A stretch of DNA of 64,000 bases from Flaviaesturariibacter aridisoli (GTDB lineage: Bacteria > Bacteroidota > Bacteroidia > Chitinophagales > Chitinophagaceae): the NCBI RefSeq assembly GCF_004343705.1, contig NZ_SKFH01000008.1, forward strand, positions 1-64,000, written 5' to 3'. How positions within the stretch are numbered: position 1 is the first letter of the stretch; every line of letters begins with the position of its first letter. The notes under the pieces are model-generated. The model searched no databases and had not been told where the DNA came from. It saw only the letters and a program-made list of their open reading frames with translations. The translations under genes and the position numbers were made by a program. Shown piece by piece: positions 4,089-48,566 of the stretch.

Positions 4089-4190
4089 GCTTTACGCCGG
4101 AATCTGAAATCCTAAATCTGAGATCAGACATCCGGCATCCGATAGCTCCCGTGTGGTTTCTCCCTACCTTCCGCTTCTATTTATTTCCAT

Positions 4191-8207: not shown

Positions 8208-8221
8208 GACAGAGCCCCGGC

Positions 8222-8258
8222 CCCTGTCCCCCGAAGGGGGCACTTAGGAGGGTCTTTT
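8222..8258. repeat. dispersed repeat copy A (GCCCCGGCCCCTGTCCCCCGAAGGGGGCACTTAGG)
   Basis: Near-identical copies at 31789-31826 and, inverted, at 31953-31987. Contains CCCCCGAAGGGGG hairpin. Lies between convergent genes. Confidence 0.8.
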
Positions 8259-8370
8259 CTTCTGCGTTCCAGATATTCCTAAAGCAGCGTGTTTCAGTAA
8301 GAAGCCTCGATCGCAAAGCGATCGGGGCTTCTTCGTTCCCCTTCCCCTCGGGAAGGGGGTAGGGGATGGG

Positions 8371-9468
8371 CTAGGGGGCTATACATCGGTGCAACTCCTC
8401 CAGCGGCGACTCTTCCAGCACGTCGCGCATTACCCCGCTTCCTTCGCGGCGCCATTTAACCAGGCGCAGCTGGCCCCCTTCGATCTCGATCCCCGTGATC
8501 TCGCCGTCGGAGAAGCAGCAGCAGCCGCTGTTGAAATAAGTAGGCTTCAGCTTCAGGTAATCTTCGGAAAGATGGCTGTATTCAAACTGCCGCTTGCGGA
8601 TCTCGGCCTCGATGGCCGGCACCGAAGGATCGTTGTCGGCGCGGGCGTACAGCAACTGTCGATACAGCCGCTCGATGTGCGTGAGCGATTCGAATACGGG
8701 CTGGTGCGTGTGCCCGGTGATGAGCAGCAACCCGGGTTGCTGTGCGCTCCATTCGTACATCAGCGTGTTGTGGAGCGTCTTCAGCGTGGTGTCGTAGGCC
8801 GGCGTGTTGGGGTTGATCTGGAGCCAGCTTTGAAAGGGCGCCCAGATGCGGGCCACGAAGAATTTGCTGAACCAGTTTCCGTCGCTTACCTCGTCGCCCT
8901 GGTGGCCATGGGTGCAGAAGATCTCGAGCGGCCCGTTGGCGGTTTCGGTACGCAGCAATACACCCTCGTAAATGGGCACCGCGGTGCCGAAGGCGGCCTT
9001 GAGGTAAACGGGCGCCAGCGGATCGTTGTCCCACAGCAGGTCGTGGTTGCCAAAGATCTTGGTAAAGGCGCCACGGTCCTGGAACAGCCGCTCCTTTTCG
9101 AAGGTGGCGGCCTGCGCCTTACTCACGGCGAGCCAGCTGTTTTCCCAGAGCTCCTCGCAATCGCCGAGGGCGATGTAGTGATAGCCTTCGCGGTTGTAAT
9201 GCTCCAGCGCGGCGAGGTAGGCCGGCTCGCATACGGTGAAGTCGTCGGCACCGTTGCGCGTACCCTTGTGTTGGTCGGAAAAGATGATGAACTTCCCGGC
9301 GTCGCGGCTGAAAGGCAGCACGAGCCCTTTTTTAAAGGACCCTTTGCGCAAGCAGTCGAGCAGCTTCGAGAGGGCGGCAAACACGCGTTCCTTGTTGGGT
9401 GCCGACGAGTATCTGGCGGAGAGCCGGAGGACGGGTTTCAAGAGAATACGGCGGAGGAGTCTACGCAT
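8371..9468 (-). CDS. metallophosphoesterase (calcineurin-like)
   Basis: GDCEELW, GNHD, GHTHQP metal-binding motifs. Confidence 0.8.
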   Translation of the reverse strand: MRRLLRRILLKPVLRLSARYSSAPNKERVFAALSKLLDCLRKGSFKKGLVLPFSRDAGKFIIFSDQHKGTRNGADDFTVCEPAYLAALEHYNREGYHYIALGDCEELWENSWLAVSKAQAATFEKERLFQDRGAFTKIFGNHDLLWDNDPLAPVYLKAAFGTAVPIYEGVLLRTETANGPLEIFCTHGHQGDEVSDGNWFSKFFVARIWAPFQSWLQINPNTPAYDTTLKTLHNTLMYEWSAQQPGLLLITGHTHQPVFESLTHIERLYRQLLYARADNDPSVPAIEAEIRKRQFEYSHLSEDYLKLKPTYFNSGCCCFSDGEITGIEIEGGQLRLVKWRREGSGVMRDVLEESPLEELHRCIAP

Positions 9469-15256: not shown

Positions 15257-15324
15257 AATGCAGGGGCGGGGAATATTCCGGCTGAATCCGAGATCAGAGA
15301 TCCGAAATCAGAGATTAGAAATTT

Positions 15325-22391: not shown

Positions 22392-22895
22392 ATGGCCATT
22401 CGCATTTTCGTTACCGGCGGCACCTTCGATAAGGAATACAACGAGCTGACGGGTCAGCTGTTCTTCAAAGACTCGCACCTGCCCGAGATGCTCCAGCTGG
22501 GGCGCAGCCGCGTGCCGGTAGACATCCGTACGCTGATGATGATCGACAGCCTCGAGATGGAAGACCTGGACCGCGAGCTCATCGTCCGGCACTGCCTCGA
22601 AGCCGAGGAGCAGCAGATCATCATTACCCACGGTACCGACACCATGGCCGAAACCGCGGAGCTGCTCGCCCGCGCGGTGTCGGGCAAGACCATCGTGCTT
22701 ACCGGCGCGATGATTCCCTACAAATTCGGGTCTTCGGACGGGCTGTTCAACCTCGGCAGCGCCGTAGCTTTTGTGCAAACACTGCCCGAAGGTGTATACG
22801 TGGCAATGAACGGCCGCGCTTTCAAGGCCGGAAATGTGAAGAAGAACAAGCTTACCGGGGAGTTTGGTCCCCTGTCCCCGGAAGCGGGAACCTGA
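22392..22895 (+). CDS. asparaginase domain-containing protein (short, N-domain type)
   Basis: IFVTGGTFDK...IIITHGTDTM match L-asparaginase N-terminal TGGT / HGTDT motifs. Only 167 aa. Confidence 0.55.
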   Translation: MAIRIFVTGGTFDKEYNELTGQLFFKDSHLPEMLQLGRSRVPVDIRTLMMIDSLEMEDLDRELIVRHCLEAEEQQIIITHGTDTMAETAELLARAVSGKTIVLTGAMIPYKFGSSDGLFNLGSAVAFVQTLPEGVYVAMNGRAFKAGNVKKNKLTGEFGPLSPEAGT

Positions 22896-24975: not shown

Positions 24976-25245
24976 ACTGGAAAGTAAGCAAGTGGGAAGT
25001 CGGAATTGCAATGCCCACTTTGAACTTCCGACTTTAAAACTTTTAGTTATGGCCTACGGCGTGCTCATCTGCGGGTTAGGGTCGGAGCTTGCAAAAAATC
25101 GCTGATGCCTGATGGCGGATTTCTGATGTAGATCAGAGGTAAAGAAGAGAGTAATGAACTGTGTCTTGAAATCAGACATCCGAAATCAGGCATCCGACAG
25201 CTCCCTCTTGGCAGGTGTTTTGTTTAAGGTAGGCTAAACTCGGTT

Positions 25246-28395: not shown

Positions 28396-28500
28396 CGCTG
28401 ATGTCGGATTTCTGATGTCGGATTTAGAAAGAGATCGCATTGCGATCTCTTTTTTTTACGCTTACATCAGATATCAGACATCAGCGATTTTTGCCGTTGG
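28396..28500. terminator. large palindrome with central terminator hairpin
   Basis: GATCGCTGATGTCGGATTTCTGATGTCGGATTT / AGAGATCGCATTGCGATCTCT + TTTTTTT / inverted copy of first arm. Confidence 0.6.
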
Positions 28501-30198: not shown

Positions 30199-31857
30199 TT
30201 AGAGGATGATGTTCTGCACCAGCTCTCCGTGTTGCGGGTAATCGGTGTTGTAGTGCAGGCCGCGGCTTTCCTTGCGGAAGGAAGCGCCCTTGGTAACGAG
30301 GTAGCCCACCGTGATCTGGTTGCGCAGCTCGAGCAACTGCGGCGACACCGTAGTACTACGGTACAGGTCCTCGGTCTCGTCGAAGAGGAGGTCGATGCGC
30401 TTCATGGCGCGGGCGAGGCGCACGTTGTTGCGCACGATGCCCACGTAGTCGCTCATCACCTGTTGCAGCTCTTTGAGGCTTTGGGTGATGAGGATCATCT
30501 CCTTCGGCTCGGCGGTGCCCTGGGCGTTCCAGTCGGGGATCGCGGGCAGCTCGGGGAGCGCCTCAAAGCGGCGCACGGCGTCTTCAAAGCAGCGGTGGGC
30601 AAACACCATGGCCTCGAGCAGCGAGTTGGAGGCGAGGCGGTTGGCGCCGTGGAGGCCGGTAGACGCGCATTCGCCGCAGGCATACAGGTTGGCGATGGAG
30701 CTGTGGCCCCATTGGTCGGTCTTGATGCCGCCGCAGCTGTAGTGCGCCGCCGGCGCCACGGGAATCATCGCCGTGGCCACATCGATGCCCAGGGAAAGGC
30801 AGCGCTCGTAGATGTTGGGAAAGTGCTCCTTGAATTTTTCGATATCCATATGGCGGCAGTCGAGCCACACGTGCTCGGTGCCGCCGATTTTCATTTCGCT
30901 GTCGATGGCGCGGGCCACGATGTCGCGCGGGGCGAGGTCCTTGCGGGCGTCGTAGCGCTCCATAAAGGCTTCGCCGGCGCCGTTGCGCAGGATGCCGCCG
31001 TCGCCGCGCACGGCCTCGGTGATGAGAAAGGCCTGCCCGCGCCGGCCGGCCTCGTAGAGCGCCGTGGGGTGAAACTGAATGAACTCCATGTTCTCGATGC
31101 GGCCCTTGGCGCGGTAGACCATGGCCACGCCGTCGCCGGTGGCGATGGCAGGATTGGTGGTGGTACGGTACACCTGGCCGTTGCCGCCGGTGGCCAGCAG
31201 CGTCAGCTTCGACAGCACCTTCTCGATGCGGTTGGTGACCATGTTGAGCACGTATACGCCGTAGCAGCAGATATCGGGCGTGCTTTTCGTAACCAGGTAG
31301 CCGAGGTGGTGTTGGGTGATGATATCCACCACGAAGCAGTGCTTCACGATGTGGATGTTGGGGGTGTTTTCTACCGCGGTGAGCACGGCGCGTTCCATCT
31401 CCTTGCCCGTTACGTCTTTGTAGTGGAGGATGCGGTACTCGGAGTGGCCCCCCTCGCGACCGAGCTTGTAGGAGCCTTCGGCGTCCTTGTCGAACTGGGC
31501 GCCCCAGTCGATGATCTCCTGCACGCGGGCGGGGCCTTCCTTTACCACGATCTCCACCACATTGGGGTCGCAGAGGCCGTCGCCGGCGATGAGTGTGTCT
31601 TCGATGTGCTTGGCGAAGGAATCGTTCTCCAGGTCGTTCACGACGGCGATGCCGCCCTGGGCGTACTTGGTGTTCGTTTCATCCGCCGCCGCCTTGGTGA
31701 TGATGGTCACGCTCCGGTCGGGAAAACGCTGCGCCACCTTGAGCGCGTAAGTGAGGCCGGCGATGCCGGAGCCGATGACGAGGAAGTCGGCCCCGGCCCC
31801 CTGCCCCCCGAAGGGGGCACTTAGGTCAGTACTGTCCGTTATGTTTTGTGCTTTCAT
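30199..31857 (-). CDS. nadB: L-aspartate oxidase
   Basis: DFLVIGSGIAGL FAD fold, RHMDI...HYSCGGI...NRLASNSLLE NadB/SdhA-family motifs. First 12 codons lie in a MITE-like insertion. Confidence 0.85.
   Translation of the reverse strand: MKAQNITDSTDLSAPFGGQGAGADFLVIGSGIAGLTYALKVAQRFPDRSVTIITKAAADETNTKYAQGGIAVVNDLENDSFAKHIEDTLIAGDGLCDPNVVEIVVKEGPARVQEIIDWGAQFDKDAEGSYKLGREGGHSEYRILHYKDVTGKEMERAVLTAVENTPNIHIVKHCFVVDIITQHHLGYLVTKSTPDICCYGVYVLNMVTNRIEKVLSKLTLLATGGNGQVYRTTTNPAIATGDGVAMVYRAKGRIENMEFIQFHPTALYEAGRRGQAFLITEAVRGDGGILRNGAGEAFMERYDARKDLAPRDIVARAIDSEMKIGGTEHVWLDCRHMDIEKFKEHFPNIYERCLSLGIDVATAMIPVAPAAHYSCGGIKTDQWGHSSIANLYACGECASTGLHGANRLASNSLLEAMVFAHRCFEDAVRRFEALPELPAIPDWNAQGTAEPKEMILITQSLKELQQVMSDYVGIVRNNVRLARAMKRIDLLFDETEDLYRSTTVSPQLLELRNQITVGYLVTKGASFRKESRGLHYNTDYPQHGELVQNIIL
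31789..31826. repeat. dispersed repeat copy B (inside 5' end of nadB)
   Basis: GGCCCCGGCCCCCTGCCCCCCGAAGGGGGCACTTAGG; encodes SAPFGGQGAG within nadB. Confidence 0.8.
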
Positions 31858-31952
31858 CTTATGGTAGTTTCAAAAATACAGATGGTTCGCTACGCGAACC
31901 ATCAATTACGCCATTGGAATGAAGACTGATTGAAATAAAGAAGAATGACCGA

Positions 31953-31987
31953 CCAAAGTGCCCCCTTCGGGGGACAGGGGGCCTAAT
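31953..31987. repeat. dispersed repeat copy C (inverted relative to B)
   Basis: Reverse complement TTAGGCCCCCTGTCCCCCGAAGGGGGCACTTTGG. B and C bracket a 126-bp AT-rich segment containing the nadB ATG. Confidence 0.8.
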
Positions 31988-32703
31988 TTAAAAGTTCCTG
32001 CCGCAGCGCCTCGGCGCTTTTCCTGGGTGCGCGGGGTGGGGTGATGTGGTTGAGGAGGCCGAGGGAGAGAAGCAGCTGTGCGACGCCGTAAGTACCGATG
32101 ATCAGCAGGCTGTGGGCGGTGCTTGTTTCTTTCCAGTAAAAACGGGTGAGCGCGAGCACCGAGTCGGAGGCCACGAAGAGGAGGGCGCCACCGAAAAGGA
32201 GGCCCGCGCTGCGCCGGTTCTTGAGACGCACGAGCTGCAGCGCCATCGCCAGCATAAGGGAGATGACGGCGCCATATGCCAGCACCGGCAGGCGCAGCGC
32301 GCCGAGGTGCTCATAGAGCAGGGTGATGAGGCACACGTAGTACGTGGCCACGGGCACGAGCATCAGCGGGCGAAAGCGCAGGCCCTTTTGCTGCCGCAAC
32401 TGGATGAAGGCGATCGCGTAGGCGATCTGCGCCAGCAGGAAAGCGGCGATACCGGCGATGAAGTAGCCTTCGCTGGAGCGCAGCAGGAGCACATCGCCCA
32501 CCCAGGAGGCGGCGAGGGCGGCCAGCAGCAGCACCTTCAGGCGCGTGGTGAAGTGGGGCGTGTTGTTGAGCACCATCCCGATCAGTAGCAGCGTGAGCAG
32601 CGGCTTGCTGAACACGCGCAGGCCGTCGTCGTGCATGAAGATGAACACCCCGTCTACGAGGAGCGCCGCGATGAAGAAGAGGGACCAGTAGAGTCGTTTC
32701 ATA
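31983..32703 (-). CDS. lysoplasmalogenase (YhhN/TMEM86 family) membrane protein
   Basis: Multi-TM, ~240 aa, YhhN-like hydrophobic pattern. Start at MKRLYW. Confidence 0.65.
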
Positions 32704-32773
32704 TCGTGAAGCGTGAGGCGTGAGGCGTGAGGCGTGAGGCGTGAGGCGTGAGGCGTGAGGCGTGAGGCGTGAA
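32704..32773. repeat. heptanucleotide tandem repeat (GCGTGAG)x8-9 abutting start codon
   Basis: Perfect 7-bp repeats 1 bp upstream of the ATG. Inverted partial copy CCCCTCACGCTTCACG at 32876-32893. Confidence 0.9.
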
Positions 32774-32892
32774 AATTTGGGTTACGTAAGGTACTGCTTA
32801 ATCGTAGCAAAAATCATATCCGCGTTAATCATCTCGATCCTATAAAATCTGCGTTCTTTCTCTTCTCACAACTGACCCCTCACGCTTCACGA

Positions 32893-34953
32893 TCATGCTT
32901 CCACCAGCGGCTCCACCCAGGCCCCGGCTTCCTTCAGCAGCCCGATCAGTTCTTCCACGGCCACTTCGCTGGGGACGTTGCGCTTCACCACTTCCTTGCC
33001 TTTATAGAGCGTGATCTTGCCCGGGCCGCTGCCTACGTAGCCGAAGTCGGCGTCGGCCATCTCGCCGGGCCCGTTTACGATGCAGCCCATAATGGCGATC
33101 TTGACGCCCTTCAGGTGGTGGGTCACGGCGCGGATCTTCGCCGTGGTTTCCTGGAGGTCGAAGAGGGTGCGGCCGCAGGAGGGGCAGGAGATGTATTCCG
33201 TTTTGGAAATGCGTGTGCGCGTGGCCTGCAGGATGCTGAAGGCCGTGTTGTTGAGAAACTGGGCGTTGCTGCCCACTTCCATATAGGTGCGGCCTGACAC
33301 GCGGCTGTTGTGCAGCTTCGACGGGTCGTTCATCAGCCACACGCCCTTGCCGATGCCGTCGAGCAGCAGGGTGCCGGCGGTGGTGGCGAAATCGATCAGT
33401 TGTTCGTCGACGGTGCTGCTGTGGCTTTCGGCGCCGATCACGACCGGGAGGCGCGCCGGCAGGGCGGCGACAAAGGCCCGGATATCGGCTGTAGGGTTGG
33501 CGCTGCTGGCATACACGCATAGCACGATTTTGGCGCTGCCGGCTAACAGCGCGCCGAGCGATCCCGGGCTGGTAGCCGAGGCATCTACTGCGATGAAATT
33601 CAGTGCCGCCGCGAAATCCGGCTGCAGGCCGGCGGCGGACGCTTCCAAGAGCTTCGCCGCTTCAAAGAGCGGGTAGTGCCGCTCGAGCTCCGGCTTCCAT
33701 ACCGGGGCGTTGCAGATGACGCCGAGGGTTCCGGGCAGCGCGAAATCAATGACCTTGCTGGCCGTATAGATATAGTCGGCCGCGGAGTCGCCGATGTTCC
33801 ATTTGTCGAGCGCGGCGCTGTAGCGGTAGCCGATGGCGGCAAGGTCTTCCGGAGAAATGCGGTCGGCATGCATGTAGTCGGCAATGACGACGGGGACGGG
33901 GCTGCCAGCGACCGCCTCCCGCACCGACCCATCCTCCCGACCTCCTTCCCACGGGGAAGGAGGGGCAGACCTCACCCCCGACCTCCCGCTTTCGCGGGAC
34001 AGGCTCTCTCCAAAGGAGAGGGGGGCGCTTTGGCTCCCCGCCCCGCCCGGGGAGGGGCTGGGGTTTTTCAACGCTTCTACTTTTTTCACCAGGTCCTTGC
34101 AAACGGGCAGCTCGAACTCGGGGTCTTCGGTGAGCGACACGCGGATGGTGTCGCCGATGCCTTCCTGCAGGAGGGTGCCGATGCCAATGGCGCTCTTGAT
34201 GCGGCCGTCTTCGCCGTCGCCGGCCTCGGTCACGCCGAGGTGCAGCGGGTAGCATTCGCCGAACTCCTGCTCCATGTGCCGCACCAGCAGGCGGTAGGCT
34301 TCCACCATCACGATCGGGTTGGAGCTTTTCATGCTCAGCACGATCTGGTGGTAGTCTTCGGAGCGGGCGATGCGGAGGAATTCCATGGCGCTTTCCACCA
34401 TCCCGATGGCGGTGTCGCCGTAGCGGCTCATGATGCGGTCGGAGAGGGAGCCGTGGTTGGTGCCGATGCGCATGGCGGTGCCGTGCTCTTTGCAGATGCG
34501 CACCAGCGGCGTAAAGCGCTCGCGGATGCGGTCGATCTCTTCGGCGTATTCGGTATCGGTGTATTCGATCTGCTCGAACTTCTTTTTATCGACGTAGTTG
34601 CCCGGGTTCACGCGGACCTTTTCCACGATGCGGGCGGCGATCTCGGCGGCGTTGGGCGTAAAATGGATGTCGGCTACGAGCGGAACGTTGTACCCGCGGC
34701 GGTGCAGCTCGTCGCGGATGACGCGCAGGTTTTCGGCTTCCTTTTTCGAGGGGGCGGTGATGCGCACCAGCTCGGCGCCCGCCTCGATGCAGCGGATCGT
34801 CTGGGCCACGGTGGCCTCGGTGTCCATCGTGTCGGTGGTGGTCATCGTCTGGATCCGGATCGGGTAGTCGCCCCCCAGCCAGAGGTCGCCGATGCGGACG
34901 GGACGGGTGTGGAGCCGCTGGTACGAAGCGGTTTTTTCGGGTTGGGTCTGCAT
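32893..34953 (-). CDS. ispG: 4-hydroxy-3-methylbut-2-en-1-yl diphosphate synthase (flavodoxin), long-form
   Basis: GcpE N-terminal TIM-barrel motifs and C-terminal CPSCGRT...GCIVNGPGE 4Fe-4S motif. Large insert domain as in Bacteroidota/plant-type IspG. Confidence 0.9.
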   Translation of the reverse strand: MQTQPEKTASYQRLHTRPVRIGDLWLGGDYPIRIQTMTTTDTMDTEATVAQTIRCIEAGAELVRITAPSKKEAENLRVIRDELHRRGYNVPLVADIHFTPNAAEIAARIVEKVRVNPGNYVDKKKFEQIEYTDTEYAEEIDRIRERFTPLVRICKEHGTAMRIGTNHGSLSDRIMSRYGDTAIGMVESAMEFLRIARSEDYHQIVLSMKSSNPIVMVEAYRLLVRHMEQEFGECYPLHLGVTEAGDGEDGRIKSAIGIGTLLQEGIGDTIRVSLTEDPEFELPVCKDLVKKVEALKNPSPSPGGAGSQSAPLSFGESLSRESGRSGVRSAPPSPWEGGREDGSVREAVAGSPVPVVIADYMHADRISPEDLAAIGYRYSAALDKWNIGDSAADYIYTASKVIDFALPGTLGVICNAPVWKPELERHYPLFEAAKLLEASAAGLQPDFAAALNFIAVDASATSPGSLGALLAGSAKIVLCVYASSANPTADIRAFVAALPARLPVVIGAESHSSTVDEQLIDFATTAGTLLLDGIGKGVWLMNDPSKLHNSRVSGRTYMEVGSNAQFLNNTAFSILQATRTRISKTEYISCPSCGRTLFDLQETTAKIRAVTHHLKGVKIAIMGCIVNGPGEMADADFGYVGSGPGKITLYKGKEVVKRNVPSEVAVEELIGLLKEAGAWVEPLVEA

Positions 34954-35074
34954 TGGGGCAAAAGTACCGAACGAATCGGTTTAGGGTTTAGAGGTTTAGA
35001 AAGGTTTAGGGGTTTAGAAGGGTTTAGAAAGGTTTGGGGGTGTGCCTGTTCCCTCCTCTTGTCGCAAAATACCC

Positions 35075-35295: not shown

Positions 35296-35378
35296 AAGTA
35301 TCCCGGACGCCCCCAAATCCGAAATCCGAAATCCGAAATCAGAAATCTGAAATCAGAGATCCGACATCCTACATCTCC

Positions 35379-35930
35379 TCACCAGTCCTTATTCGGCTGG
35401 TTCCCCCCGCCTTTGTCTTTTTTGCTCTGCTGCAGCTTCCGCTCCTTGTCCTGCAGTTCCTTGAGCTTGCGGTCCACGTCGTTGTTCTTGTTTTTGTCGT
35501 TGGAGGCGCCGCCGCCGCCGCTGTTCTGCTTCAGTTCCAGCAGGGCCTTCTGCAGGTTTTCGCGGGCTTCCTTGTCGTAGGGAGCGATGCGGAGGGCCGA
35601 TTTATAGGCCTCGATGCTTTGCTCGAGCGCCTTCTGGCGGGTGTATACGACGCCCATATTGTACCAGGCCTTGCTGCGCAGGGAGGCGTTGTTGCCGGGC
35701 GCCGTCAGGGGCGACAACACGGCGAGGGCTTCGTCGTAGCGGTTCTGGCGGATGAGGGCGTTGGCGAGGTTGTACTGCGCCACGGGGTGGTTGCCGGCCT
35801 GGCGGTACTGGTTTTCGGCAAAGGTCCAGTCGGCGTTGCGGTAGGCTTCGTTGCCGGCGCGGATGGCTTCTTGCTGGCCGTTGGCAACGGCGCCGACGGC
35901 GAGGGCGAGGAGCAGCAGGAGGGCTTTCAT
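35379..35930 (-). CDS. tetratricopeptide-repeat protein (BatC-like), secreted
   Basis: Signal peptide, TPR-like YNLANALIRQNRYDEAL repeats, K/E-rich tail. Confidence 0.6.
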   Translation of the reverse strand: MKALLLLLALAVGAVANGQQEAIRAGNEAYRNADWTFAENQYRQAGNHPVAQYNLANALIRQNRYDEALAVLSPLTAPGNNASLRSKAWYNMGVVYTRQKALEQSIEAYKSALRIAPYDKEARENLQKALLELKQNSGGGGASNDKNKNNDVDRKLKELQDKERKLQQSKKDKGGGNQPNKDW

Positions 35931-36940: not shown

Positions 36941-37036
36941 TGCGGCGCTTTCTGTAAATATCACGCCAAAACGGATTGCGGATTTCAGATCCCGGATTTC
37001 AGATTTCAGATTTTGGAGGCCGGATTCTTATTCAGG

Positions 37037-37490
37037 GCAACCGCTAGCATGCCGGAGGCATGCACGCTCGATAGCCCGGCATACCATGCCGGGATAACGC
37101 GGTTGGCCGATTCGGGGCATGCCGGAGGTATGCGCGATGTGCGGCGATTCCCGGTTTCCGTCCCGGGATTGCATCCCGGGTGGTGAAACGCGCATGCCTC
37201 CGGCATGCATGGGCGCCATCCTTCTTTCCGTCCCGGGATTGCATCCCGGGTTGTGAAACGCGCATGCCTCCGGCATGCAGGGACGCCATCTGTCTTTTCG
37301 TTACCGGGGTTGCATCCCGGGTGGTGAAACGCGCATGCCTCCGGCATGCAGGGATGCCATCCGTCTTTTCGTTACCGGGATTGCATCCCGGGTTGTGAAA
37401 CGCGCATGCCACCGGCATGCATAGATGCCATCCGTCTTTCCGTCCCGGGGTGCATCCCGGGTTGTGAAACGCGCATGCCTCCGGCATGCT
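37037..37490. repeat. tandem array, ~70-bp unit x6-7, each with two hairpin palindromes
   Basis: Unit GCATGCCTCCGGCATGC...CCCGGGATTGCATCCCGGGTTGTGAAACG. Spurious repeated-peptide ORFs on both strands. Confidence 0.9.
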
Positions 37491-37628
37491 CCGAAAAGCG
37501 CGCGAGACAGCAGGCGGGCCGTACACAATGCGTGCATCCGCCACACGAAGCGCCCCGCTTTCGGCGGGGCGTGCATAAAAAATCGGTAAAGACTCCTGAC
37601 TCTTAAATCCTGAATCTGAGATCTGAAT

Positions 37629-38435
37629 TCATTTCTGTCCCTTCAGGTATCCCAGCTTCGTCAGAATGCCTTTCAGCATGTTCATCCGCACGGTGGGTAC
37701 GTCCACGCCGGGTTTGAGGGTTTCGAAGTTGAGCGCGAAGAAGTAGGGGTGGTTGTTTTCTTCCACCCAGCCCACGACCCAGGCGAGGTCGCGGCCGTTT
37801 TCCTTTTTACCCCAGCCCGTCTTATAGGCAAGGCGGTAGGCGGGGGTGCTTTCGAAGAGCATCGCGCGCTTCACGATCTCCTGGTTGGTCTTGAAGAAGG
37901 GCAGCTGGTTGAAGTAGAGGCGCTTCACGAGGCCGAGCTCTTCGTCGGGGCGGATCTTGAGGGAATTGTCGAGCCAGAAAGTGTCCACTTTGGAGATCTT
38001 CTTGTTGCCGTAGGCGAGCGAGTCGAGCCAGCGCTGCATGGTATCGCGGCCGATGCGGCGGGCGGCTTCCTGGTACCAGGCCGGGCAGGAGCGGCGAAAG
38101 GCGGTGTACATACTCATGTCGGCATCGCACTCGGTGCGGCCCGAAGGCACGCCGTTCCAGCGGATCACCATCGAGTCGTTGCTGATGATGCCCGTTTGCA
38201 GCCCGACGAGCGAGTTGACGATCTTGAAGGTGGAGGCGGGCGTAAAGGCGCTGTCGCGGAAGCGCGGCAGGTTGTACATCGTAAAGGCGCCGGTGGCGTT
38301 GTTGAGCACGGCAAAGCAGCCTTCGGTGCCGTTGTCGCTGAAGAATTTGCCGAGCGAGTCGTCGGTGGTCACGTTGTTGGTGGAGCAGCCGGCCAGGAGG
38401 AGCACGGCTGCAAATGAAGCAAGAATGGTGCGCAT
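37629..38435 (-). CDS. class D (OXA-type) beta-lactamase
   Basis: Signal/lipobox MRTILASFAAVLLLAGCS. STFK active-site serine box, YGN, KTG, WxxG motifs. Confidence 0.85.
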   Translation of the reverse strand: MRTILASFAAVLLLAGCSTNNVTTDDSLGKFFSDNGTEGCFAVLNNATGAFTMYNLPRFRDSAFTPASTFKIVNSLVGLQTGIISNDSMVIRWNGVPSGRTECDADMSMYTAFRRSCPAWYQEAARRIGRDTMQRWLDSLAYGNKKISKVDTFWLDNSLKIRPDEELGLVKRLYFNQLPFFKTNQEIVKRAMLFESTPAYRLAYKTGWGKKENGRDLAWVVGWVEENNHPYFFALNFETLKPGVDVPTVRMNMLKGILTKLGYLKGQK

Positions 38436-48181: not shown

Positions 48182-48201
48182 GGCGGTAAGTTCGGGAAAA
48201 A

Positions 48202-48243
48202 TCGTGAGGCGTGAGGCGTGAACCGTGAGCCGTGAGCCGTGCG
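48202..48243. repeat. degenerate heptamer repeats (CGTGAGG-like x6) upstream of gene start
   Basis: CGTGAGGCGTGAGGCGTGAACCGTGAGCCGTGAGCCGTGCGA 20 bp upstream of the ATG. Confidence 0.8.
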
Positions 48244-48566
48244 ACGGCGCGGCGGGAATCGGCAATGGATGCCGGAACATCAAATTCCAAACAACAAACC
48301 CTTCCCGCCCAAACCTTCCGGAACCTTCCGGAACACGCTCCGGAGGCTAAGAAAGTTCCCTTAGTCGCTCATTATCAGTAGCGTATGCATCAGGTGGGCG
48401 GTTTTTGGAGTTCTGAATCAATAACTAATTCATAATCTGTTCTTTTTAATAGCTTGTCAGTCCCACATGCCGATTATATTTGCAGCGCGAAACCCTCCTC
48501 AACCAACCCGGCATTTTGAAAAAATGCCTGGGACTGAGGTGGCGAAGCTATGCCTAAGCCCCTGTC

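Follow-up and report, generated by a model that had tools for sequence, protein, structure and literature searches.

An inverted-repeat element appears to supply the start codon and leader of nadB in Flaviaesturariibacter aridisoli

An inverted-repeat element between yhhN and nadB

The window analyzed here, a 64,000-nt stretch of the genome of the soil bacterium Flaviaesturariibacter aridisoli, contains the NAD-synthesis gene nadB (L-aspartate oxidase) on the minus strand (30199–31857, an ORF of 552 aa). Upstream of it, on the same strand, lies a yhhN-family gene (31983–32702, 239 aa) that ends in a TAG stop at 31983–31985. The junction of the two genes is occupied by a 199-bp element (31789–31987) whose inverted arms, 31795–31830 and 31948–31983, are 36 nt long each, 92% complementary and 117 nt apart. 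The right arm, termed copy A (31789–31835, minus strand), is a GC hairpin with a cUUCGg loop and a GGGGCC tail, and is translated as (T)DLSAPFGGQGAGA. The left arm, copy B (31942–31987, plus strand), overlaps the yhhN stop with its outer end. The preliminary description of this locus had reported an inverted repeat pair bracketing an AT-rich segment, and this pair is real; the spacer (31827–31952, 126 nt) has a GC content of 38%, against 59% across the window. Read on the minus strand, the interior comprises an AT-rich left inner spacer (31904–31941), a terminator-like site consisting of the central hairpin GATGGTTCGC-GTA-GCGAACCATC followed by a T-run (31881–31903), a −7 box, TATTTTTG (31871–31878), and the ATG of nadB (31855–31857), which has the same position in the orthologous element at locus L002.

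A 28-nt core of the arms, AAGTGCCCCCTTCGGGGGRCAGGGGGCC, has three matches in the window at up to three mismatches, at 8218–8245 (−), 31795–31822 (−) and 31956–31983 (+), where none is expected (100 shuffles). An nhmmer profile of the repeat unit recovered the same three copies in the window (E values of 3e-12 to 4e-14) and a decayed fourth copy at 22867–22893 (E = 0.0075). Each arm folds as GCCCCC-UUCG-GGGGGC, and the units resemble REP sequences in being imperfect palindromes of 20–40 nt that occur in inverted pairs and mostly past stops. The element also resembles a MITE in size, being shorter than ~500 bp and without coding capacity for a transposase: it measures 190–335 bp at other loci, with an AT-rich interior of 117–250 nt. 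The 36-nt terminal arms likewise bound the copies at L002, L003, L005, L007, L009, L014, L022 and L025. In a search against Rfam 15, only two tRNAs in the window reached gathering scores, and the region 31650–32100 gave only sub-threshold chance matches. A weak match to a plant miRNA precursor is explained by the long hairpin alone. Integron attC-like and CRISPR-like readings were dropped, because the repeats do not form an array and the flanks consist of core genes whose synteny is conserved.

The nadB start and the N-terminal extension

Residues 1–21 of the window NadB are derived from the element, and residues 22–23 (Gly-Ala) come from its terminal GGGGCC repeat. Homology to other NadB proteins begins at residue 23–24, the FAD_binding_2 profile begins at residue 24, and residue 9 of E. 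coli NadB aligns with residue 23 of the window protein. An extension of 12–14 residues had been proposed; this agrees with the 14 residues counted relative to E. coli NadB but not with the 20 counted relative to the protein's own family (552 versus 532 aa). The translated repeat had also been assigned to copy B, whereas the arm that is read as LSAPFGGQGAG is copy A (31789–31826). As the preliminary description stated, the 126-bp segment holds the only in-frame ATG: the one at 31857 is the sole canonical start between an in-frame TGA (31872–31870) and the GSGIAG motif, and the next canonical start, a GTG at residue 41, is already past that motif. The start region is predicted to be unpaired, with the arm hairpin falling at +38 to +57. 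Read from the sequence, NadB most likely begins (M)KAQNITDSTDLSAPFGGQGAG, that is, MKAQNITD.

If the extension were an annotation artefact or irrelevant, NadB would start downstream of the repeat, or the gene would be decaying. It is true that the N-terminal 20 residues fall outside every profile and PDB alignment, and that they are without secondary structure in an AlphaFold2 model of the extended protein, itself a poor model (27-sequence alignment, mean pLDDT of 52.6) and therefore weak evidence on the tail. However, no ATG, GTG or TTG is found between 31857 and the GxGxxG motif, and the ORF is intact, 97% identical to the NadB protein P0001 and in possession of all family-invariant residues. 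In L002, L013, L014, L003, L025 and L022, too, no stop interrupts the frame that leads from a start codon in the element (GTG in L025, otherwise ATG) across the arm and into the gene. Extended NadB proteins are 549, 552, 554 or 556 aa long, and every one of these differences is a multiple of three nucleotides, so that the frame from the element ATG has survived length changes in at least five lineages. We consider an artefact highly improbable and treat the extension as part of the protein; the 20-residue tail is probably disordered.

nadB orthologues with and without the element

A length of 532 aa is shared by more than 100 of the 120 closest NadB proteins, and those whose sequence was read begin MQTDFLVIGSG (or MVTDF/MKTDF). 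The 532-aa MQTDF group includes a 97%-identical relative with an unrelated, repeat-free yhhN–nadB spacer. At locus L001, DNA identity to the window is 93% in all three flanking genes; the spacer is an unrelated, repeat-free sequence of 107 bp and nadB opens with ATG CAA ACC. Of five repeat-free loci examined, four (L001, L016, L017 and L018) have a conserved TAAATTCG box 6–8 nt before the ATG; at the fifth, L019, the upstream sequence differs. Extended orthologues were compared at the DNA level at L002, L013, L014 and L015, with the F. terrae protein P0003 left out. L002, L013 and L014 combine the nadB extension with repeats, the same element being found at the same junction, and L015 has an extension without a recognizable repeat.

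The part of the window nadB that is colinear with element-free orthologues spans 30199–31788 (minus strand). Its junction reads GGGGCC/GACTTC where the ancestral sequence is ATGCAAACC/GACTTC, and the GCC/GAC boundary is identical in all element-bearing lineages. Everything from the yhhN stop through nadB codon 3 has been replaced by the element; the stop itself is TAG in the window and TGA in the element-free loci L001, L016 and L018. The N-terminus alignment called for by the preliminary description supports its central claim, that the nadB start codon was taken from the repeat element: repeat-free genes begin MQTDF, MVTDF or MKTDF without an extension, the extended genes at L002, L013 and L014 carry the repeats, and the old ATG is missing. 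Among the loci compared, this alignment identifies the element-bearing nadB as the derived state.

Between the window and L002, the stem of the central hairpin is 100% identical (only the loop differs), the stretch from hairpin to ATG is 96% identical (22/23), the arms are 91–97% identical and the left spacer is 60% identical. Judged from this alignment, conservation is selective, and the ~60% identity of the left inner spacer (31904–31941) is consistent with near-neutral evolution.

Copies at other loci and at other genes

The third hairpin unit in the window (8219–8258, minus strand) lies 10 nt past the stop of a plus-strand gene. It had been described as a solo copy at 8222–8258; the copy exists, but it is not solitary, being paired across a terminator hairpin (8301–8331) with a different GC hairpin (8338–8359) that adjoins the stop (8371–8373) of a convergent gene. 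The plus-strand gene at 22392–22895 ends in the decayed fourth copy (22867–22893, minus strand), from which it takes its stop and its last nine codons (GPLSPEAGT). In F. amylovorans, the ~320-bp copies at L007 and L009 are similar up to their outer inverted-repeat ends, and their flanks are unrelated. The family thus has copies at unrelated sites with homology ending at the terminal inverted repeats, as in MITEs, and units lie at three further sites in the window. The L007 and L009 copies form gene 3′ tails that end in PLSPEGGT plus stop and similar sequences.

Two further genes take their start from an element. In F. flavus, where L003 and L005 have the central hairpin in common, a DUF72 gene begins MSEEKGNTDLSAPFGGQGAS-LEWRIGCSG, while the empty-site relative L024 reads MSREIEWRIGCSG; the junction falls exactly at the old ATG. 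At L022, a FabK-like gene begins MIEEKKENSDLSAPFGGQGA-QLFNIHYP, with PDB homology from residue 20–21. The leader peptides are near-identical, and the FabK-like leader nearly equals the nadB extension of L013, MIEKKKESNDLSAPLGGQEA. The ATG and ~10 codons thus travel with the unit.

The exact core occurs in 10 stretches among 185,579 species genomes and in 4 among metagenome contigs, so the repeat is not a ubiquitous REP, a possibility raised in the preliminary description. No sequenced Flaviaesturariibacter genome has more than 4 exact-core stretches, compared with 3–4 repeat units in the 64-kb window alone, the genome-wide count covering exact cores only. The element family is found in Flaviaesturariibacter and in a small number of other Chitinophagaceae. 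A leader-peptide search of a 5.8-billion protein set with a concatenated 44-aa query returned two candidates. Interiors are barely alignable between loci, and clustering of the inner spacers (60 nt) gave a weak signal with a mild tendency to group by genome.

Poor conservation among the interiors of different copies would also be expected if two independent solo REP-like hairpins had landed at the yhhN stop and at nadB codon 3, with native intergenic DNA between them and nothing captured. Most units elsewhere are indeed single, located right past stops and oriented to their own gene, and two units between convergent genes can mimic an inverted pair (L005; window 8208–8373). Yet a solo in-frame insertion past codon 3 would retain the old ATG, and the window is without both the native TAAATTCG box and ATG CAA ACC, which L001, L016, L017 and L018 have in common. 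Moreover, the ATG and ~10 codons before the arm are near-identical at two unrelated genes, L013 nadB and the L022 FabK-like gene, and L007 and L009 have arms as well as interior in common between unrelated flanks. Two independent hairpins are quite improbable given these data, and we favor a single element comprising both arms and the interior.

Predicted promoter and terminator

Instead of Shine-Dalgarno sites, Bacteroidota use −7 boxes and unstructured leaders rich in A at their gene starts. The −7 promoter consensus of Bacteroidetes is TAHHTTTG (PMC6847099). Perfect matches to it number 14 in the 64-kb window, with 8.4 expected. One of them is the TATTTTTG box of the element, which stands 14 nt before the nadB ATG and is kept in L002. 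From this box, transcription is predicted to begin near 31866, which would give a 5′ UTR of ~9 nt, and the element probably supplies the nadB promoter. A scan for sigma-70-type promoters found nothing, as expected for Bacteroidota. The central hairpin and T-run at 31881–31903 resemble an intrinsic terminator, which would serve the upstream yhhN gene.

A model for the capture of the nadB start

We think it quite likely that the segment 31789–31987 belongs to a dispersed, non-coding element family bounded by inverted repeats, and that this copy supplies the start of nadB. Each half-element is a unit of ~100 nt, built from an outer GC hairpin (GTGCCCCC-TTCG-GGGGGAC plus a variable GGGGCC tail) and, further inward, an AT-rich spacer of ~55 nt and a terminator-like hairpin common to both halves. 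In an ancestor of the F. aridisoli genome, the element would have taken over the whole yhhN–nadB gap, removing the native spacer, the near-leaderless promoter box TAAATTCG and the first three nadB codons (ATG CAA ACC). Transcription of yhhN would now end at the central hairpin and its T-run, the latter doubling as the −7 box TATTTTTG from which the nadB transcript would begin near 31866. Translation would start at the element ATG (31857) in an unstructured, A-rich context and read through the right-arm hairpin, from about +38, into the Rossmann motif; the 20-residue NadB tail would be the outcome. Of these points, the sequences show the repeat family, the replacement, the derived state and the maintained reading frame, while the use of promoter and terminator and the mode of movement are inferred.

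The preliminary description had suggested looking for target-site duplications; around full-length copies there is no consistent one, and the copies in the window, L002, L003, L007 and L009 are not flanked by direct repeats. At L005, TA adjoins both ends of the copy. Outer element ends mostly adjoin TAG or TAA stops, which would fit a TA target, but the ends fused to genes are without TA. Because neither a target-site duplication nor a transposase or autonomous partner was found, we use ‘MITE’ as a description rather than as proven membership. At each of the three start-donating loci, the whole stop-to-start gap is taken up by the element and no old spacer is left, except that ~10–20 nt after the stop may remain at the DUF72 locus. 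Such whole-gap filling at three loci is not predicted by simple insertion. Of the proposal that a MITE-like insertion gave nadB its start, the replacement and the derived state stand; the element has, however, replaced an entire gap rather than settled inside one, and no consistent target-site duplication was found.

The same architecture raises a variant of this history, in which the element repeatedly and precisely swaps stop-to-start spacers, by site-directed insertion or cassette-like exchange. Repeated swapping would explain the patchy distribution: presence and absence conflict with the nadB gene tree in three sister pairs with ~100% bootstrap support (window with, L001 without; L014 with, L017 without; L013 with, L016 without). 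Along yhhN and nadB, sliding-window identity (window, L001 and L002) does not dip before the element is reached, and the flanks carry no recombination signature. Both arms of L014 are of the GTTCC sub-type, both arms of the window and of L002 are of the GTGCC sub-type, and the L014 units are closer to other F. amylovorans copies than to the window units. The element would then be a self-contained, exchangeable module of terminator, promoter, start codon and leader peptide that a directed mechanism places, and may also take out, exactly between a stop codon and the opening codons of the following gene; this would account for both the shared architecture at three unrelated loci and the three discordant sister pairs without a recombination trace. 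On the other hand, the identical nadB junction of all element-bearing lineages and the orthologous appearance of the window and L002 interiors, with their neutral-like left spacer, fit one old insertion whose alleles were later sorted, or exchanged between closely related lineages. The sample comprises only ten loci, and neither an enzyme nor a target motif was found. We consider repeated swapping, and with it a directed exchange module, unlikely, and retain the capture of the nadB start from one copy of the family, whatever its history.

Significance and comparison with known systems

The locus offers a clean case, dated by comparison, of an essential biosynthetic gene completely rewired by a small non-coding repeat, which brought a new start codon, an N-terminal tail and an inferred promoter while the old ones were deleted; the same repeat family did so for at least three unrelated Bacteroidota genes. 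With −7 boxes and A-rich leaders, portable 5′ ends may evolve with unusual ease in Bacteroidota. Unexplained N-terminal extensions of 20 residues will turn up in the output of gene callers and orthology pipelines, and tails ending in LSAPFGGQGA or in PLSPEGGT plus stop should be recognized as repeat-derived. The right half of the element is also a candidate for a compact expression cassette in Chitinophagaceae.

Several families of small bacterial repeats share individual properties with the nadB element. REP/REPIN elements are mobilized by RAYT transposases without target duplication; most REPINs measure less than ~110 bp, have short spacers and are present beside a RAYT gene in copy numbers of tens to hundreds. 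REP units are GC-rich imperfect palindromes past stops, often in inverted pairs that form a larger hairpin (PMC3184786). In contrast, the arms of the present family are 117–250 nt apart and exact copies are few. Correia elements (CREE/NEMIS) measure ~100–160 bp, duplicate a TA target, contain an IHF site and reach hundreds of copies; to our knowledge, they have not been reported to replace start codons. They are bounded by terminal inverted repeats, non-coding, mostly intergenic and able to form a long hairpin, and their outward promoters are functional and can drive neighbors such as uvrB (PMC10969869). By contrast, the nadB element has a translated arm and apparently few copies, and a target duplication was not found. 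Rickettsia palindromic elements are translated in frame within housekeeping proteins as a conserved peptide (PMC10969869), which the recurrent LSAPFGGQGA peptide of the nadB element recalls; they are insertions internal to an ORF, however, and supply neither start codon nor promoter. Coxiella QMITE1 and QMITE2, in the available part of their description, overlap gene 3′ ends and give C-terminal residues and stops (PMC5896051), and the copies at window 22867–22893, L007 and L009 likewise supply C-terminal tails. The QMITE overlaps with functional genes given in that part are all C-terminal, whereas the present family replaces 5′ ends three times.

The nearest functional precedents for a gene start donated by a repeat are Neisseria REP2 (CREN) and the Borrelia plasmid IR, dispersed repeats located directly upstream of ORFs that carry a promoter, translation signals, an ATG and internal stem-loops (Delihas 2011, PMC3184786); the likeness considered here is one of function. 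As in REP2, the ATG from which the downstream gene is read lies within the repeat, here at the nadB, DUF72 and FabK-like genes. REP2 has a Shine-Dalgarno site and no terminal inverted repeats, whereas the nadB element has 36-nt hairpin arms, a predicted −7 box and no Shine-Dalgarno site. It further adds a 20-residue translated leader that includes a hairpin, and a putative terminator for the upstream gene. Supplying a gene start is a known capability of small bacterial repeats, of which the nadB element is a well-documented new example.

An inverted repeat surrounds the nadB start

The nadB gene (552 aa; minus strand, 30199-31857) begins inside the single inverted pair that a repeat finder returned in 31600-32200, two 36-nt arms (31795-31830 and 31948-31983) that are 92% complementary and 117 nt apart. 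The preliminary description had placed two inverted copies around this start and, between them, an AT-rich segment holding the only in-frame ATG for nadB; both points were borne out. The 126 nt between the copies as then delimited have a GC content of 38%, against 59% for the window, and ATG 31857 is the sole ATG, GTG or TTG from an in-frame TGA (31872-31870) to the GSGIAG dinucleotide-binding motif. Further on, the first codon that could serve is the GTG of residue 41. The TAG stop of the upstream yhhN-family gene (31983-31985) adjoins copy B, the yhhN-side arm. The inverted-repeat observation is thus confirmed with one slip, the name of the translated arm: LSAPFGGQGAG, just ahead of GSGIAG, is encoded by copy A (31789-31826) and not by copy B.

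A 28-nt core, AAGTGCCCCCTTCGGGGGRCAGGGGGCC, matches the 64-kb window three times when up to three mismatches are allowed (8218-8245, minus; 31795-31822, minus; 31956-31983, plus), with none expected from 100 shuffles. A fourth copy, in decay, was picked up at 22867-22893 by a profile of the repeat unit. When 27 units, taken from the window and the other loci, were aligned, the repeated unit proved longer than the 36-nt arm. Its outermost part is a GC hairpin whose GGGGCC tail varies; next comes an A-rich spacer of ~55 nt, in which the consensus ...GCTTTAGGAAAAG...GAAAAGTATGATYnnCCTAAG is frequent, and innermost lies a terminator-like hairpin. The full element consists of two units head to head that share one central hairpin (31903-31881, minus strand), the only terminator-like site on that strand in 31500-32300. 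For the complete element, the predicted folding energy is -105 kcal/mol (z = -9.7).

The extended nadB is the derived state

By its best protein matches, the window belongs near Flaviaesturariibacter (Chitinophagaceae). More than 100 of the best 120 NadB matches are 532 aa long, and those that were read start with MQTDFLVIGSG or something close to it; an extension like that of the window is confined to a few of the 120, which are 549-556 aa long. We compared nine orthologous loci at the DNA level. Eight share the order gcpE-yhhN-nadB-acyltransferase, and the ninth (L019) has a gene without a Pfam match at the yhhN position. The closest relative, L001, matches the window at 93% DNA identity across yhhN, nadB and the acyltransferase gene, and its 107-bp yhhN-nadB spacer is repeat-free, bears no similarity to that of the window and leads into ATG CAA ACC GAC TTC. 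L016 (F. flavus), L017 and L018 likewise lack the repeat, and in all four the nadB ATG follows a TAAATTCG box at a distance of 6-8 nt. A repeat-bounded segment fills the stretch from the yhhN stop to nadB codon 3 in four cases, namely the window, L002, L013 and L014 (F. amylovorans), always with the junction ...GGGGCC|GACTTC.

The element has thus replaced the native spacer, the promoter box and the first three nadB codons. The extended state is derived; an extension without flanking repeats was not found among the repeat-free relatives (L001, L016-L018), all of which have the short start. The lost native 5' region and these short relatives support the proposal that nadB captured its start from the element. 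The nadB frame has been kept through 3n-length changes in several lineages.

In L015 (2986-3110), the nadB orthologue of P0011 has a 24-residue extension, MNAEHNNEKPALSIAPGEAIGAQDAWA-DFL, with only 15 bp after the yhhN stop and no recognisable arm. It contains a different small hairpin, CCGGCGC...GCGCCGG, and represents either an extremely degraded copy or another element placed at that junction.

A dispersed family donates gene starts and ends

The exact core is rare, which does not fit the ubiquitous REP considered as an alternative: it occurs in only 10 stretches in a collection of 185,579 species genomes (two in F. flavus, four in F. amylovorans and four in MAGs, one of them Hanamia) and in four stretches of metagenome contigs. 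Two paralogous ~320-bp copies in F. amylovorans (L007, 298-627; L009, 6776-7096) are similar only between their outer arm ends, their flanks being unrelated.

Two further genes take their starts from full elements. In F. flavus (L003), one separates a DUF72 gene from a response-regulator gene, and the DUF72 ORF reads MSEEKGNTDLSAPFGGQGAS-LEWRIGCSG. The N-terminus of DUF72 proteins in the outgroup is M(x)0-6 W(R/H/Y)IGCSG. At the empty site of the relative L024, an unrelated 102-bp spacer precedes ATG TCC CGG GAA ATC GAA TGG, and the L003 element junction is exactly at the old ATG. On metagenome contig L022, an element (69-404) begins directly after a TAG stop and gives MIEEKKENSDLSAPFGGQGA to a FabK-like enoyl-ACP reductase, which is homologous to solved structures from residue 20-21 on. 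This leader is almost identical to the L013 nadB leader, MIEKKKESNDLSAPLGGQEA; therefore the ATG and about ten codons belong to the copied DNA.

Units also supply 3' ends. The plus-strand gene 22392..22895 owes its stop and the nine codons before it (GPLSPEAGT) to the decayed unit at 22867-22893; the stop of a convergent gene is only ~24 nt away. The L007 unit encodes the 3' end ...GPGPLSPEGGT*, and L009 has a similar tail. The third copy, originally placed near 8222-8258, is present (8219-8258) and is not solo: it belongs to a stop-to-stop module (8208-8373) between convergent genes. After the first stop come the A-type hairpin unit (8219-8258), a hairpin that would terminate in both directions (8301-8331) and a different, B-type hairpin, CCCCTTCCCCTCGGGAAGGGGG (8338-8359), ahead of the second stop (8371-8373). 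A and B are paired likewise at two places in a Hanamia MAG (L010, 3661-3797 and 4258-4395).

Movement and history

No target duplication was consistent across the element copies, and no transposase was identified. Most outer ends lie next to TAG or TAA, an arrangement that would be compatible with a TA target, the genome being GC-rich. At the three start-donating loci the element occupies the full stop-to-start gap with no old spacer remaining, except that about 10-20 nt after the stop may survive at the DUF72 locus. To reach this state, a simple insertion would have had to be followed at every locus by a second step, an exact deletion.

In a neighbour-joining tree of NadB core, acyltransferase and YhhN proteins, three sister pairs with ~100% bootstrap (a count that slightly over-counts) are each discordant for the element at nadB: window+/L001-, L014+/L017- and L013+/L016-. 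L002, which has the element, is sister to the window/L001 pair. The window and L002 elements look orthologous by sequence, so L001 would need to have regained an ancestral-type spacer. One old insertion, as the common nadB junction in all element-bearing lineages suggests, may have been followed by an exchange of alleles between closely related lineages; the identity of L001 to the window stays flat to the element edge on both sides, with no recombination dip. Repeated directed insertion may also account for the pattern, and is weakly favoured by the L014 arms, both of the GTTCC sub-type versus GTGCC for both in the window, and by L014 units slightly closer to other F. amylovorans copies than to those of the window.

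Proposed expression of nadB

The T-run of the central hairpin forms TATTTTTG (31878-31871), a perfect match to TAHHTTTG, the Bacteroidetes -7 element known from transcriptome mapping in F. johnsoniae (PMC6847099). The window has only 14 perfect boxes, where 8.4 would be expected. The central hairpin would end yhhN transcription, and TATTTTTG would set the transcription start near 31866, leaving ~9 nt of leader. The predicted fold of a transcript beginning after the hairpin leaves the start region unpaired and places a cUUCGg hairpin at about +38 to +57. Between the window and L002, identity is 100% in the central stem, 22/23 from hairpin to ATG, 91-97% in the arms and 60% in the left spacer, a pattern consistent with constraint on precisely those segments that would serve to end yhhN transcription and to express nadB.

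A perfect -7 box (34959-34966, minus strand) ends 6 nt from the ispG ATG, and its position points to transcripts with almost no leader in this organism; in the relatives, the ancestral nadB box is about as far from its ATG.

The 20 extra NadB residues would form a tolerated, probably disordered tail. Pfam and PDB alignments begin at residues 23-24, and an AlphaFold model of poor overall quality has no secondary structure in the tail.

Other repeats in the window

Three small in-frame GC hairpins (33898-34068; ...SAPLSFGESLSRESGRSGVRSAPPSPWEGGREDGS...) lie within ispG/gcpE (32893..34953, minus strand), in a segment that replaces an unrelated protein segment of the L013 and L015 orthologues and has a shorter version in L001. 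They look like other members of the same GC-hairpin repeat superfamily, translated inside a housekeeping enzyme. L001 GcpE (141-1967) has 608 aa versus 686 aa in the window and lacks ~60 residues found in the window, L013 and L015, which could be a real deletion or a MAG assembly problem.

Intergenic tandem heptamers occur at 4094-4145, 15285-15322, 25163-25200, 28458-28495, 32695-32783, 35316-35381, 36972-37026, 37592-37629 and 48186-48246, with (CGTGAGG)n directly upstream of the yhhN ATG and (AATCYGA/GATCAGA)n at many window spacers. The yhhN-nadB spacer of element-free relatives has other heptamers, such as ATTGAAT and ATTCGAT. Intergenic heptamer direct repeats are reportedly the topic of an existing paper. 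The arrays at 37155-37518 and 1272-1434 include a five-copy tandem of period ~70 nt with paired hairpins (GCATGCCTCCGGCATGC, CCCGGGATTGCATCCCGGG) and a four-copy array of 41-nt period.

Comparison with known systems

The finding is real, and its interpretation in the preliminary description is supported. From its size, inverted arms and dispersed copies, and with no consistent target duplication found, we call the element MITE-like rather than a proven MITE. We found no description of the family in Rfam or in the literature searched. In structure the element is like Correia elements, which are TIR-bounded with outward promoters, and also like Rickettsia palindromic elements, which encode conserved peptides read in frame (both PMC10969869). 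Its behaviour at 3' ends is like that of Coxiella QMITEs (PMC5896051). By function, the closest known case is that of the Neisseria REP2 repeat and the Borrelia IR sequences, which provide a promoter, ribosome-binding site and ATG before ORFs (PMC3184786).
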